Source of the DNA: Escherichia phage vB_EcoM-S1P5QW
Sequence record: OL956808.1
Reading direction: 5' to 3' (one strand)
DNA length: 64,000 nucleotides
The notes under the pieces were generated by a model that worked only from the letters and a program-made list of their open reading frames with translations, was not told the origin of the DNA and did not search any database. Shown here piece by piece: positions 18,410 to 61,533 of the stretch; positions within the stretch are counted from its first letter, which is position 1; each line of letters starts with the position of its first letter. The position numbers were made by a program, and so were the translations under genes.

Positions 18410-18772
18410 ATGAAAGCATATCAAATTCTTGAAGGCACACATAAAGGTACTATTTATTTTGAAGATGGTATTCAAGCACGAATTATTGTCTCTAAAACCT
18501 TTAAAGAGGACTCTTTTGTAGACCCAGAAATTTTCTACGGTTTGCATGCCCGTGAAATTGAAATTGAGCCACAGCCTACAGTTAAAATTGAAGGTGGTCA
18601 ACACCTGAACGTTAACGTTCTGCGTCGTGAAACTCTGGAAGATGCAGTTAAGCATCCGGAAAAATATCCGCAGCTGACCATCCGTGTATCCGGTTATGCA
18701 GTTCGCTTTAACTCTCTGACTCCGGAACAGCAGCGCGACGTTATCGCTCGTACCTTTACTGAGAGTCTGTAA
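18410..18772 (+). CDS. autonomous glycyl radical cofactor (GrcA/YfiD-like; T4 Y06I homolog)
   Basis: C-terminal ~60 aa ([39 protein letters not shown]...) carry the glycyl-radical RVSGY motif and look essentially identical to E. coli GrcA. Confidence 0.85.
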
Positions 18773-18993
18773 TGGCAAAGATAATTATTGAAGGTTCTAA
18801 AGATGTGCTAAATGCTTTCGCAGAATGGTTTAGTAATTCAGGCGAACAGCAATTTAATGAAGCCTGGAATATGGGTGATATTGATGGAATTTATCCTACG
18901 ACAGAAATTTCTGTTCAAGGATATGGCATTCATGAACCTATTCGTTTAGTTGAATATGATTTATGCACTGGTGAGGAAGTCAAATATGATTGA
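18772..18993 (+). CDS. hypothetical protein
   Basis: 73-aa ORF, ATGA overlap with upstream gene. Confidence 0.5.
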   Translation: MAKIIIEGSKDVLNAFAEWFSNSGEQQFNEAWNMGDIDGIYPTTEISVQGYGIHEPIRLVEYDLCTGEEVKYD

Positions 18994-19252: not shown

Positions 19253-19530
19253 TGGCTCAATTAAGCGCAGGGTTTGGTTATGAGTATTATACTGCCCCTC
19301 GTCGTGTATCTGCCGCTCCTAAGAAAATTCAAAGTCTTGATGACTTCCAGGAAGTAGTCCGTAAAGCTTTCCAGGACTATGCACGTTATCTTAAAGAAGA
19401 TTCACAGGACTGTCTTGAAGAAGATGAAATTGCTTACTATGAGCAACGTCTTGAACAGCTTAAAAACCTACATGAGGTCCGTGCAGAAGTTTCAAAGTCT
19501 ATGAATAAATTGATTAGATTTAAAGAATAA
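19252..19530 (+). CDS. hypothetical protein
   Basis: 92 aa from ATG 19252. Confidence 0.5.
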
Positions 19531-19532
19531 CT

Positions 19533-19562
19533 GTTTACTTTTCCTCTTGACTGTGGTATAAT
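19533..19562 (+). promoter_or_regulatory. early promoter (GTTTAC ... TGGTATAAT)
   Basis: CTGTTTACTTTTCCTCTTGACTGTGGTATAAT upstream of regB. Confidence 0.6.
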
Positions 19563-19589
19563 TTTTCTATCAGTTAAGAGGAGAATAAC

Positions 19590-20051
19590 ATGACTATCAA
19601 TACAGAAGTTTTTATCCGTCGAAATAAGCTTCGTCGTCACTTTGAGTCGGAGTTTCGTCAAATTAACAATGAGATTCGTGAGGCATCAAAAGCAGCAGGG
19701 GTCTCATCGTTTCATCTAAAATATTCTCAGCATCTTCTTGATCGTGCAATTCAACGGGAGATTGATGAGACATATGTTTTTGAATTATTCCATAAAATAA
19801 AAGACCATGTTTTAGAAGTTAATGAATTCCTGAGTATGCCTCCGCGTCCTGACATTGACGAGGATTTTATTGATGGGGTTGAATATCGTCCTGGACGTTT
19901 AGAAATCACAGATGGAAATCTTTGGCTTGGATTTACGGTTTGTAAGCCTAATGAGAAGTTCAAAAACCCGTCACTTCAATGCAGGATGGCAATTATCAAC
20001 AATCGTCGTTTACCAGGAAAGGCTTCTAAAGCAGTAATTAAAACTCAATGA
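19590..20051 (+). CDS. regB: site-specific RNA endonuclease RegB
   Basis: 153 aa, N-terminus MTINTEVFIRRNKLRRHF as recalled for T4 RegB; RBS GAGGAGA. Confidence 0.85.
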   Translation: MTINTEVFIRRNKLRRHFESEFRQINNEIREASKAAGVSSFHLKYSQHLLDRAIQREIDETYVFELFHKIKDHVLEVNEFLSMPPRPDIDEDFIDGVEYRPGRLEITDGNLWLGFTVCKPNEKFKNPSLQCRMAIINNRRLPGKASKAVIKTQ

Positions 20052-20058
20052 GGTAAGC

Positions 20059-20604
20059 ATGAGAAAAGCACTACTCGCTGGTCTATTGGCCATTTCAATG
20101 ATGGCACATAGCTCCGAGCATACTTTCAGTAATGTCCAACTCGATAACATGCGTTACGCGTATCAATTCGGGGAACAATTTTCTAAGGATGGAAAATATA
20201 AAACACACAAAAATATCCACAAGAGCGGATTAGGTCATATAATGGCTGCCATTTTATGGCAAGAAAGCTCTGGCGGAGTTAATTTAAAATCTAAACCAAA
20301 GCATCACGCCTACGGAATGTTCCAAAATTATTTGCCTACTATGCGAGCAAGAGTTAAGGAACTTGGTTATAATATGACCGATGCTGAAATAAAAAGAATG
20401 TTGAATAAACGGTCCAATTCAGCTTCCTGGGCGTACATTGAACTTTCTTATTGGTTAAATATACATAAGGGCGATATAAGAAAAGCAATATCCTCTTATA
20501 ATTCGGGATGGAATGTTAAAGCAGGTTCTAAATATGCTTCTGAAGTCCTAGAAAAGGCTAATTACCTTAAAAATAATAAACTTTTGGAAATAGTAAATGA
20601 CTAA
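20059..20604 (+). CDS. secreted lytic-transglycosylase-like protein
   Basis: 181 aa with N-terminal signal peptide; SLT-like motif ILWQESSGG...YGMFQ. Confidence 0.55.
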   Translation: MRKALLAGLLAISMMAHSSEHTFSNVQLDNMRYAYQFGEQFSKDGKYKTHKNIHKSGLGHIMAAILWQESSGGVNLKSKPKHHAYGMFQNYLPTMRARVKELGYNMTDAEIKRMLNKRSNSASWAYIELSYWLNIHKGDIRKAISSYNSGWNVKAGSKYASEVLEKANYLKNNKLLEIVND

Positions 20605-20938
20605 AATTTTGGTTTTATGTATAGGATTAATTTCATTTTCTGCGTTAGCAGATACATCATATACTGAAATTAGAGAGTATGTAAACCGTACTGCAGCGGA
20701 TTATTGCGGGAAAAATAAAGCATGCCAAGCTGAATTTGCGCAGAAATTAATATATGCATATAAAGACGGAGAAAGAGATAAATCAAGCAGATACAAAAAC
20801 GATACATTGTTAAAACGATATGCTAAAAAGTGGAATACCTTAGAATGTTCAGTTGCGGAGGAAAAAGATAAAGCCGCTTGTCATTCAATGGTTGACCGTT
20901 TGGTAGATTCTTATAATCGAGGATTGAGTACTAGATGA
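20597..20938 (+). CDS. secreted hypothetical protein
   Basis: 113 aa with signal-peptide-like N-terminus MTKILVLCIGLISFSALA and several Cys. Confidence 0.5.
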   Translation: MTKILVLCIGLISFSALADTSYTEIREYVNRTAADYCGKNKACQAEFAQKLIYAYKDGERDKSSRYKNDTLLKRYAKKWNTLECSVAEEKDKAACHSMVDRLVDSYNRGLSTR

Positions 20939-21414
20939 TTGTAAAATATATCAAGGGCGATATTGTCGCCCTCTTTCTTGAAGGTAATATTATTGCGCAT
21001 GGGTGTAACTGTTTTCATACAATGGGCAGTGGTGTAGCTGGTCAATTAGCAAGAGCCTATCCCAAAATTTTAGAAATAGATAAAACCACTACTGAGTACG
21101 GTTCTCGTGATAAATTAGGCGATATGTCTATTGTTTTTAAACATAAACCTAATGGTTTTGGCATATGTTATAACTTGTATACGCAATACGAACCAGGTCC
21201 TAATCTTGATTATGGTGCTTTAGTAAACTGCATGATAGAATTAAATCTACAGGCAGAAACCCTTTTGTTTAAACCAGTAATTTACATTCCACGCATAGGT
21301 TGTGGTATTGCTGGCGGCGATTGGGATAAGGTTTCTAAATTAATCGACATGTTTACTCCTGATATTGATTTAATAGTGGTGGATTATGAAAGTACATTAC
21401 CCACATCCGTTTGA
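20935..21414 (+). CDS. macrodomain protein (ADP-ribose binding/hydrolase-like)
   Basis: 159 aa; motifs HGCNC...MGSGVAGQLA and IGCGIAGG resemble macro-domain N-x(6)-GGGV and G-x-G signatures. Confidence 0.6.
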   Translation: MIVKYIKGDIVALFLEGNIIAHGCNCFHTMGSGVAGQLARAYPKILEIDKTTTEYGSRDKLGDMSIVFKHKPNGFGICYNLYTQYEPGPNLDYGALVNCMIELNLQAETLLFKPVIYIPRIGCGIAGGDWDKVSKLIDMFTPDIDLIVVDYESTLPTSV

Positions 21415-21598
21415 TCCTAAAAACAAAGTGGAAATTATTCGTCAATGGGAACGCATTTGCCGTACTAAATGTCCAATTAATAGTCCACATGATGTAGATA
21501 AAGACTACATTGGAACATTCGTTGAATATACCTTTATTGATAAGAAAGGTCGTAAACAACATGTAGAAGAATATTGCTTAAAGGTTACATGGTTATGA
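21386..21598 (+). CDS. hypothetical protein
   Basis: 70-aa ORF overlapping the macrodomain gene end. Confidence 0.4.
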   Translation: MKVHYPHPFDPKNKVEIIRQWERICRTKCPINSPHDVDKDYIGTFVEYTFIDKKGRKQHVEEYCLKVTWL

Positions 21599-21801
21599 GC
21601 CAAACTAGTATTCTTAAAAATGCCCACTGTGAAAAGTGTAAGTGGCCTGTTGTTTTTGCTTTATGTAATGATGAAATGGCTTGTGATTTCGATTATTGGT
21701 GCTATTGTTCTAATAAAGGATGCATCAATCATAAAGGTGAAGGATTTTATTCGGGATTTTATCCTTATCCTGATTTCGTTAAAGAAGGTAAACCAAAATG
21801 A
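21574..21801 (+). CDS. Cys-rich small protein (putative zinc-binding)
   Basis: 75 aa with CEKCKW...CNDEMACDFDYWCYCSNKGC. Confidence 0.45.
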   Translation: MLKGYMVMSQTSILKNAHCEKCKWPVVFALCNDEMACDFDYWCYCSNKGCINHKGEGFYSGFYPYPDFVKEGKPK

Positions 21802-21974
21802 ATGATGATTTAAAATATCAATTATTACGTGAACTTGATGTTTTGATTGAACTTTCTGCGCAAAAAGGATTTATAATTGGATCAGGTCAAAAAGACCCCA
21901 ACGGTCATTCAATCGTAGCGGTTATGAATCAGAAACGAGTCATTTTAAAACTTTTGGGGATTGACATACTGTGA
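21798..21974 (+). CDS. hypothetical small protein
   Basis: 58-aa ORF below the track cutoff; ATGA overlap upstream and GTGA overlap downstream. Confidence 0.4.
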   Translation: MNDDLKYQLLRELDVLIELSAQKGFIIGSGQKDPNGHSIVAVMNQKRVILKLLGIDIL

Positions 21975-22156
21975 GTCTAAGCAAAGAACAAAAAGATAAA
22001 TTGTTTGAGCTTATCCATGAACTTCTAGATGAGCATATAGAAGCAAACACCTTTTATGATGAATACGGCCCGCTATCTCCAGAACAGCAGGAAGAATTTG
22101 CTGATCGGTTTGATAAGAAAGAAAATGAATTAATAGCTTATGTGAATACGCTTTAA
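21971..22156 (+). CDS. small helical protein (paralog family)
   Basis: 61 aa, GTG start; resembles the ~60-aa family at 23975-24888. Confidence 0.45.
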   Translation: MSLSKEQKDKLFELIHELLDEHIEANTFYDEYGPLSPEQQEEFADRFDKKENELIAYVNTL

Positions 22157-22165
22157 GAAGGTGAT

Positions 22166-22747
22166 ATGGCGAGTTTAATTTTTACTTATGCAGCAATGAA
22201 TGCTGGAAAATCTGCTTCTCTTTTGACTGCTGCACATAATTATAAAGAACGTGGAATGAGTGTATTAGTTCTTAAGCCTGCTATTGATACTCGCGATTCT
22301 GTCTGTGAAGTTGTTTCTCGCATTGGAATTAAACAGGAAGCGAATATTATTACAGATGATATGGATATTTTCGAGTTCTATAAATGGGCTGAAGCACAAA
22401 AAGATATTCATTGCGTATTTGTAGATGAAGCTCAGTTTTTAAAAACTGAACAGGTGCATCAATTAAGTCGAATTGTTGATACATATAATGTTCCTGTTAT
22501 GGCTTATGGATTAAGGACTGATTTCGCTGGAAAATTGTTTGAAGGTTCTAAAGAACTTTTAGCGATTGCAGATAAACTTATTGAACTAAAGGCAGTTTGT
22601 CATTGTGGTAAAAAAGCGATTATGACAGCTCGATTAATGGAAGATGGAACACCAGTTAAAGAAGGTAATCAAATCTGTATTGGTGATGAAATTTATGTTT
22701 CTTTGTGCAGAAAACATTGGAATGAATTAACTAAAAAGCTCGGTTAG
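22166..22747 (+). CDS. tk: thymidine kinase
   Basis: 193 aa; P-loop NAGKSASL and C-terminal Cys cluster typical of type II thymidine kinases; RBS AAGGTGA. Confidence 0.9.
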   Translation: MASLIFTYAAMNAGKSASLLTAAHNYKERGMSVLVLKPAIDTRDSVCEVVSRIGIKQEANIITDDMDIFEFYKWAEAQKDIHCVFVDEAQFLKTEQVHQLSRIVDTYNVPVMAYGLRTDFAGKLFEGSKELLAIADKLIELKAVCHCGKKAIMTARLMEDGTPVKEGNQICIGDEIYVSLCRKHWNELTKKLG

Positions 22748-22756
22748 TGCAAAAGT

Positions 22757-22764
22757 TATAAATA
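22757..22764 (+). promoter_or_regulatory. late promoter TATAAATA
   Basis: exact octamer upstream of the 22790 ORF. Confidence 0.45.
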
Positions 22765-22789
22765 GGTTTATCTAACTAAAGGGGTATAT

Positions 22790-23002
22790 ATGCTACAATT
22801 AACTGAAAAGCAACTTCGCAATCTTACTGTTCTTCAATTAGATGAAATTCGTAGGGAAGTTGGAAATATCATTTCAGCTTTGCGTCGAGAAGTATCACTC
22901 AACCAATCTCCGGCAGACTATACTAGATTGCGAAATTTTGAAAAATACCTTGATAAAGTTAAGGCCGTGCATCGGCATAAAGTAAATACAGGACAAAAAT
23001 GA
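22790..23002 (+). CDS. hypothetical protein (rI-adjacent)
   Basis: 70 aa, RBS AAAGGGG. Confidence 0.5.
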
Positions 23003-60613: not shown

Positions 60614-60907
60614 ATGAAAAAATTTATTTTTGCTACAATTTTTACTTTGGCTTCTTGTGCTGCTCAGCCTGCTATGGCAGGTTATGATAAAGATTTGTGT
60701 GAATGGTCTATGACTGCAGATCAGACTGAAGTTGAAACTCAAATTGAAGCGGATATTATGAATATCGTTGAGCGTGATCGTCCTGAAATGAAAGCTGAAG
60801 TACAAAAACAGCTTAAGTCTGGTGGTGTAATGCAGTATAATTATGTTCTGTATTGCGATAAAAACTTTAATAACAAAAATATCATCGCTGAAGTGGTAGG
60901 TGAATAA
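60614..60907 (+). CDS. sp: periplasmic protein Spackle (superinfection exclusion; lysozyme inhibitor)
   Basis: 97 aa with signal peptide MKKFIFATIFTLASCAAQPAMA; length and locus match T4 sp (61.3). Confidence 0.7.
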   Translation: MKKFIFATIFTLASCAAQPAMAGYDKDLCEWSMTADQTEVETQIEADIMNIVERDRPEMKAEVQKQLKSGGVMQYNYVLYCDKNFNNKNIIAEVVGE

Positions 60908-61533
60908 TGCTTTATCAAATGCACAAGTGCAAAGATACATACAAATATAAAGGTGCCCAGTGTTATATCATTAATCGTGAAAACGCGGGTCCAGGTCATT
61001 CGCATCAATCACGGTTTGTATTCGTTAAAAACAATGAAATTATAGCAGTTGCTAATTACATGCTTGTGACTAATGATGTTAATCCGGTGCCTTTTACATA
61101 TTATAATCTAATGGATTTGGCGTACGATTATAATTGGTTTAATCATGACACTTTGGCTCATATCGAAGGCGTAGGATTTGACATCTCTTATTCTAGTTAT
61201 TCGTTGTGTCCTATGAGCCGAGCTCATAAAGAGCCTGAATATTTTTCATTTCGTCGGCGTGTAGACTTTAAACGCAGTACAGAGTATGTCGGTGGAATCT
61301 TTGTTAAAGATAATCGAATTACTCGCATTATTTATCCTTTGGGCTGTGGTCAAAAAGATATTGATGTTGATTTAGACTTTACTGAAAACATCATTAATCA
61401 TATTGCTTCTGTATATTTTGATATTGATCACAAAATTGTAATATGTGGATATGAATTGCCATCTGAAAAACAGTCTAAAGTAAATGTTTCTATTGATGAC
61501 CAAATTTTTAATGCTTTTATGAATAGAGGTTAA
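60907..61533 (+). CDS. hypothetical protein
   Basis: 208 aa, Cys/His-containing. Confidence 0.5.
   Translation: MLYQMHKCKDTYKYKGAQCYIINRENAGPGHSHQSRFVFVKNNEIIAVANYMLVTNDVNPVPFTYYNLMDLAYDYNWFNHDTLAHIEGVGFDISYSSYSLCPMSRAHKEPEYFSFRRRVDFKRSTEYVGGIFVKDNRITRIIYPLGCGQKDIDVDLDFTENIINHIASVYFDIDHKIVICGYELPSEKQSKVNVSIDDQIFNAFMNRG

Follow-up and report, generated by a model that had tools for sequence, protein, structure and literature searches.

The gene between vs and tk.3 in a Tequatrovirus (T4-like phage) genome, analyzed here over a window of 64,000 nucleotides (the whole stretch of DNA under study), encodes a stand-alone macrodomain orthologous to T4 Tk.4, now named AdfM; it is quite likely that the protein removes DarT2-made ADP-ribose from phage DNA and in this way defeats DarTG2. 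The open reading frame, its fold and class, its active-site equivalences, its orthology and the mosaic origin of the locus were all obtained from the present analysis. For the T4 ortholog this biology has already been described, and the Gln-type active site and the exchange of the gene between genera are small additions to it. Both the invariant Gln84 at the position of a catalytic Lys and the exchanged allele appear to be new.

Earlier work had predicted the existence of a further anti-DarT factor in T4, as phage devoid of both adfA and adfN were still resistant to DarTG2 (PMC11825919). When a T4 transposon library was applied to a host expressing DarTG2, a single significant match was recovered, viz. 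tk.4 (HIDEN-SEQ; bioRxiv 10.1101/2025.11.20.689424, November 2025). A clean knockout of tk.4 rendered T4 sensitive to DarTG2, and the gene was consequently renamed adfM, for anti-DarT factor Macrodomain; noting the structural likeness of T4 Tk.4 to DarG, the authors inferred that ADP-ribose is removed enzymatically from DNA (bioRxiv 10.1101/2025.11.20.689424). The evidence for the role of T4 tk.4 in DarTG2 resistance is genetic and was presented in a preprint (bioRxiv 10.1101/2025.11.20.689424). The original prediction on the present gene had proposed that its product could reverse ADP-ribosylation of the DarT type. With the T4 ortholog needed for resistance to DarTG2, as demonstrated by the knockout, this proposal is both supported and already known, and an anti-defense gene was thus correctly picked out from its sequence alone.

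The region spanning positions 19500-22800 shares 99.8% identity with Shigella phage Sf22, and hundreds of Tequatrovirus genomes also match it. As judged from annotated records, T4 itself and tblastn of T4 proteins, the open reading frame (Table 1) occupies the slot of T4 tk.4, with vs on one side and tk.3 on the other, upstream of tk. In existing records it is labeled as a 'phosphatase', a 'macro domain protein' or a 'hypothetical protein'. The translated product matches PHROG 335 (E=1.6e-71) and is a full-length homolog of T4 Tk.4, with 58% identity over 155 amino acids (E=4e-70). The neighborhood originally described, a macrodomain gene near tk and regB, was recovered, with regB found upstream and tk downstream. 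The two adjoining proteins (20059-20938) that had been noted as carrying signal peptides were identified as Vs.1 and Vs; by inspection only, the N-termini of both are signal-peptide-like, with MRKALLAGLLAISMMAHS/SEH in Vs.1 and MTKILVLCIGLISFSALA/DTS in Vs. No functional tie between these proteins and the macrodomain was found, both being conserved and unchanged beside the very different T4 allele.

Vs is of some interest in its own right: it is annotated as a cytoplasmic valyl-tRNA synthetase modifier, yet it possesses the signal-peptide-like start together with five cysteines, as does T4 Vs, and secretion would fit poorly with the annotated function. HIDEN-SEQ identified vs as being required in minimal medium (bioRxiv 10.1101/2025.11.20.689424).

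Table 1. Features of the tk.4 locus, with positions in the window and the basis of each assignment.
Feature	Position	Strand	Basis
Early-promoter-like site TTTACT-17-TG-TATAAT, directly upstream of regB	19534..19562	+	Consensus scan only
regB	19590-20051		PF10715, E=4e-69
vs.1, SLT-domain protein (context only)	20059..20604	+	100% identity to T4 Vs.1; PF01464
vs, valyl-tRNA synthetase modifier, upstream neighbor (context only)	20597..20938	+	97% identity to T4 Vs; PHROG 1256
ATGA overlap, vs stop (TGA) and tk.4 start (ATG)	20935..20938	+	Sequence; T4 junction identical
tk.4/adfM CDS, 159-aa stand-alone macrodomain, ATG start	20935..21414	+	ORF list, Pfam, PHROG 335, AF2
First ADP-ribose-binding loop, residues 22-39, HGCNCFHTMGSGVAGQLA	20998..21051	+	H22 = SCO6735 His24 and N25 = SCO6735 Asn27 (residue alignment to 5e3b)
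Gln84, codon CAA	21184..21186	+	Profile alignment (TARG1), phmmer alignment (5e3b), 119/119 invariance; Q84 = SCO6735 Gln85 (residue alignment to 5e3b)
Diphosphate-binding loop, residues 119-130, PRIGCGIAGGDW	21289..21324	+	G122 = SCO6735 Gly126 and G124 = SCO6735 Gly128 (residue alignment to 5e3b)
tk.3 (DUF7202) start, 29-nt overlap with tk.4 3' end	21386..21414	+	ORF list; PF23832
tk	22166-22747		99.5% identity to T4 Tk

The macro-domain signatures that led to the original prediction are present in the translation, the first as the loop of residues 22-39 and the second, IGCGIAGG, as residues 121-128, and residues 22-136 align with positions 2-117 of the 118-position Pfam Macro profile (PF01661) at 33.1 bits (E=6.2e-8; gathering cut-off of 22 bits). 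Using a 60-sequence alignment drawn from at least 782 database homologs, AlphaFold2 returned a model with a mean pLDDT of 94.1 and a pTM of 0.89, which displays the three-layer alpha/beta/alpha macro fold. When this model was compared to the PDB with Foldseek, the macrodomains of TARG1, BT1257, Poa1p and DarG were the top matches (E=3e-10 to 4e-8; TM of approximately 0.7-0.8), and by both structure and sequence the ALC1-like class is nearer to the protein than are the MacroD, viral and PARG classes. Together, the model and its Foldseek matches identify the protein as the predicted macrodomain and assign it to the ALC1-like class (TARG1/DarG/Poa1p/SCO6735). Structure prediction had been suggested as a check on the assignment, and a macro fold was obtained; the alternative outcome, a non-macro fold, was not seen.

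Conservation within the family is centered on the presumed substrate pocket. Across an alignment of 119 members that includes T4 Tk.4, every sequence carries H22, G23, N25, C26, G33, A35, D49, N80, Y82, Q84, P119, and W130, and G122 and G124 are invariant or nearly so. In TARG1 (K84) and DarG (K80), the position of Gln84 is taken by the catalytic Lys. In the profile alignment, Thr83-Gln84 is found opposite Thr83-Lys84 of TARG1, and Ala126 opposite its Asp125; the Lys/Asp dyad of TARG1 is therefore missing. By phmmer, Q84 is aligned with Q105 of the 5e3b chain, which is the native Gln85 of SCO6735. The alignment to 5e3b was made with a chimeric query comprised of window residues 1-112 and the exact C-terminal 30-mer of 5e3b, and the published SCO6735 numbers are obtained when a 20-residue tag is subtracted from those of the 5e3b chain. 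The lysines with which SCO6735 positions DNA are not kept in these alignments: Lys34 is replaced by Ser32 (Ala in most relatives; 5e3b and family alignments), and the five-residue insertion of the mobile loop with Gly87 and Lys89 is absent. With Gln84 and Asn25 as the equivalents of Gln85 and Asn27, the chemistry of the protein is probably of the SCO6735 type and not of the DarG type.

With SCO6735, Gln85, stabilized by Asn27, takes the place of DarG Lys80 and TARG1 Lys84. This enzyme hydrolyzes ADP-ribose linked to thymidine on DNA, an activity that is abolished in both the Q85A and the N27S variants, and the mechanism proposed for it is water-mediated, with the Gln positioning the distal ribose (PMC9411070). 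A similar pathway is proposed for Tk.4. The host toxin DarT2 attaches ADP-ribose to thymidine in single-stranded phage DNA, and Tk.4 would then hydrolyze the thymidine-linked ADP-ribose such that the phage DNA stays replicable and DarTG2 is neutralized. Within the active site, Gln84, held by Asn25, would orient the distal ribose so that water can attack it, involving neither a Lys nor a Lys/Asp pair. Given that the catalytic residue would be Gln and not Lys, a Q84A variant, rather than a lysine mutant, is predicted to be the right dead-enzyme control. By analogy, the 58%-identical allele would be expected to act as T4 Tk.4 does; counted against this proposal are the 42% of positions at which it differs from the tested T4 protein and the loss of the DNA-positioning lysines of SCO6735.

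Hydrolysis need not be the sole mechanism of protection, however, because SCO6735 that has lost its catalytic activity can still bind DarT and inhibit it (PMC9411070). Indeed, inhibition of DarT in vitro was seen with each of the inactive variants SCO6735 Q85A, DarG K80A and TARG1 K84A, that of SCO6735 being the strongest (PMC9411070), and the variable middle of Tk.4 (residues ~44-118) could represent a fast-evolving surface for contact with the toxin. Nevertheless, the residues conserved in the family are those of the ADP-ribose pocket (H22, N25, Q84, G122 and G124), which points to catalysis and disfavors toxin binding, and Tk.4 lacks the C-terminal domain with which DarG binds DarT, the match to DarG being confined to positions 2-142 of 338. 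Neutralization of DarT2 mainly by stoichiometric binding or blocking of the toxin, and not by removal of ADP-ribose from DNA, is hence considered unlikely, and hydrolysis would be the principal mode of action. Alternatively, Tk.4 might act on small molecules and clear metabolites derived from NAD, either as an ADP-ribose-1''-phosphate phosphatase or as a deacetylase of O-acetyl-ADP-ribose. Consistent with such an activity, the H-x-C-N-C motif and the loop following it match Poa1p (6lfu, E=1.8e-9, residues 3-79), RefSeq applies the label 'phosphatase', the T4 record lists an 'A1pp phosphatase motif', and relatives are named O-acetyl-ADP-ribose deacetylase by JGI. The residues of Poa1p probed by mutation, H23, S30 and F152, correspond to H22, which is conserved, T29 and A126, respectively, with strong alignment over residues 3-79 only, and the replacement of F152 by Ala126 may argue against the phosphatase. 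The NCBIfam model for O-acetyl-ADP-ribose deacetylase, with a score of 16.7 bits, stays below its cut-off of 291. Poa1p is not known to carry a Gln at the central position. The tRNA repair of T4 (Pnkp, Rnl) is not known to produce Appr-1''-p, which was likewise counted against a small-molecule substrate. In addition, the sole phenotype reported for the T4 ortholog is sensitivity to DarTG2 (bioRxiv 10.1101/2025.11.20.689424). A metabolic role is thus judged very unlikely.

T4-like phages encode three ADP-ribosyltransferases of their own, and this was counted in favor of an eraser of the protein marks made by Alt, ModA and ModB, or of ModB RNAylation, by which host take-over would be tuned. Alt and Mod enzymes modify arginine, however, and the ALC1-like macrodomains known to us act on Glu/Asp esters and thymidine and not on the N-glycosidic bonds of Arg; reversal of the phage's own Alt/Mod modifications, the alternative offered in the original prediction, accordingly found no support, the chemistry of the class being unfit for arginine. 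Moreover, no alt or mod gene is situated near the tk.4 locus in the window. SCO6735 does also act on protein substrates (PMC9411070), but on plain K-12 T4 can do without tk.4, and only in the presence of DarTG2 is the gene needed (bioRxiv 10.1101/2025.11.20.689424). Taken together, an eraser of self-inflicted marks appears extremely unlikely. There is, finally, the question of whether the divergent allele is aimed at a different ADP-ribose-based defense, be it another DarT2 lineage, RNA ADP-ribosylation (CmdT), or immune signals derived from ADP-ribose. The limitation of the cassette replacement described below to tk.4 and the very broad diversity of alleles (2773 matching phage records, most below 60%) would be in keeping with a shift in target, but all pocket residues are common to the window and T4 alleles, and neither allele is linked by data to RNA or signal substrates. 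The chance of such a shift is rated as very small, and removal of DarT2-made ADP-ribose from DNA is retained as the preferred explanation.

A comparison of the locus with those of T4 and JS98 revealed its mosaic origin. The proteins encoded by regB, vs.1, vs, tk.3, tk, rI.1, and rI share 93-100% identity with those of T4, compared to 58% for that of tk.4. Likewise, a 60-nt sliding comparison with T4 DNA gave identities of 0.9-1.0 up to 20940, 0.4-0.9 across 20940-21420, and 0.87-1.0 in tk.3, with a collapse in tk.2/tk.1 (21600-22150) and 0.98 in tk. With Dhakavirus JS98, it is Tk.4 that is closest (94% amino acid identity), and the flanking proteins have diverged (Vs, 45%; Vs.1, 67%; RegB, 58%; Tk.3, 74%; Tk, 70%). 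The gene thus looks like a JS98 (Dhakavirus)-type cassette swapped into a T4-type backbone. The window and JS98 genes are separated by 41 synonymous and 9 non-synonymous codon differences, indicating that tk.4 is under purifying selection. Relatives of tk.4 were found by tblastn in 2773 of 50,697 phage records, mostly at less than 60% identity; the gene behaves as a cassette exchanged between genera, a mark typical of an arms-race locus.

The DNA comparison also delineated two sharply bounded islands of low identity, at 20940-21420 (tk.4) and 21600-22150 (tk.2/tk.1); the rest of the backbone shares 97-100% identity with T4. The tk.1-tk.3 segment of T4 contains no equivalent of a 75-residue open reading frame at 21574-21801 that encodes a phage zinc-binding domain (PF23895, E=3e-29), and a second one of 58 residues (21798-21974) is absent from T4. 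At 18772-18993, T4 Vs.5 (58 residues) is matched in two reading frames (18772-18822 and 18824-18946), which points to a frameshift difference from T4; the open reading frame of the window in this region is 73 residues long and differs from T4 Vs.5 at its C-terminus.

Scans for a dedicated promoter, a MotA box, and a RegB GGAG site at the ribosome-binding site of tk.4 found none, and on the + strand the consensus scan detected no promoter-like site directly upstream of tk.4 that is comparable to the one preceding regB. As the latter is the sole strong promoter-like site nearby on this strand, the overlapping, same-strand genes regB-vs.1-vs-tk.4 may be transcribed from it, and early co-transcription is envisaged, with tk.4 probably expressed early together with regB, vs.1, and vs. 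The ATGA overlap of vs and tk.4 further suggests translational coupling of the two genes. An 8-bp GC-rich hairpin (AGGGCGATATTGTCGCCCT) with a T-rich stretch after it is positioned 20 nt into the tk.4 coding sequence (20954-20972). T4 has the hairpin in identical form, although the gene sequences part soon afterwards; it could be either an RNA structure close to the start of translation or a product of chance.

Three anti-DarT layers are now known in T4-like phages: AdfA (61.2), AdfN (30.3) and AdfM (tk.4). A homolog of T4 61.2 (adfA), with 97% identity, was located at 60907-61533, and hence the window carries two of the three anti-DarTG genes known in T-even phages; the NADAR gene adfN (T4 30.3) was not found within its 64,000 nt. 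The presence of Gln in place of Lys suggests that Tk.4 has an ancestry different from that of DarG. As a broader and rather speculative view, toward which we remain doubtful, AdfM proteins of the T4 family may not have arisen from DarG antitoxins but could be phage descendants of stand-alone Gln-type (SCO6735/BT1257-like) hydrolases whose water-mediated mechanism does not depend on a lysine. Under this view, the tk.4 slot would be hot-swappable between genera, and its alleles might match different DarT2 variants or other ADP-ribosylating defenses.

Among known systems, T4 Tk.4/AdfM has the same vs-tk.3 locus, the same overlap with vs and an identical stretch of the first 14 residues. The pocket residues, including Gln84, are common to both proteins, whereas the phosphate loop reads GAGIGKGNW in T4 and GCGIAGGDW in the window. 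PhiKZ gp104, which is also named AdfM, is a stand-alone macrodomain that counters DarTG2; it has been shown biochemically to de-ADP-ribosylate DNA, and it is imported into the phage nucleus (Cell Rep 2026, PMC13309987). Its relationship to the T4 family was found to be remote (hhalign probability of 96% and 22% identity; short fragments only with BLASTP), which rules out close kinship, and it has Thr-Lys where the T4 family has Thr-Gln, in a segment for which the alignment is unreliable. The two AdfM proteins were probably acquired independently. Yeast Poa1p (ADP-ribose-1''-phosphate phosphatase, PDB 6lfq) has good sequence alignment with the window protein for the N-terminal half only.

Human TARG1/OARD1 (PDB 4j5s) is the best Foldseek match (E=3e-10; TM 0.73-0.82) and has in common with Tk.4 the PRIGCG loop and the Thr83-x84 position, but it differs by its K84/D125 dyad, which is Q84/A126 in the window protein. 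TARG1 is likewise reported to remove DarT-made ADP-ribose from DNA (PMC8501950). With DarG (DarG2; PDB 5m3i, 5m31, and 7omu), the catalytic Lys80 of the Thermus aquaticus protein contrasts with the invariant Gln84. The NCBIfam DarG equivalog NF048014 scored 27.8 bits against a cut-off of 250, over the partial match noted above, and the PADLOC DarG model 27.7 bits. A C-terminal DarT-binding domain is absent from the 159 residues of Tk.4, and there is no darT next to its gene, the neighbors being vs and tk.3. Assignment as a DarG equivalog was thus rejected on the basis of score, domain content, catalytic residue and gene neighborhood; Tk.4 is DarG-like in countering the same toxin, yet it does not belong to the DarG antitoxins. 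Among solved structures, its nearest relatives are SCO6735 of Streptomyces coelicolor (PDB 5e3b) and BT1257 of Bacteroides (2afc/2fg1), both of which are stand-alone, ALC1-like macrodomains of the Gln type.
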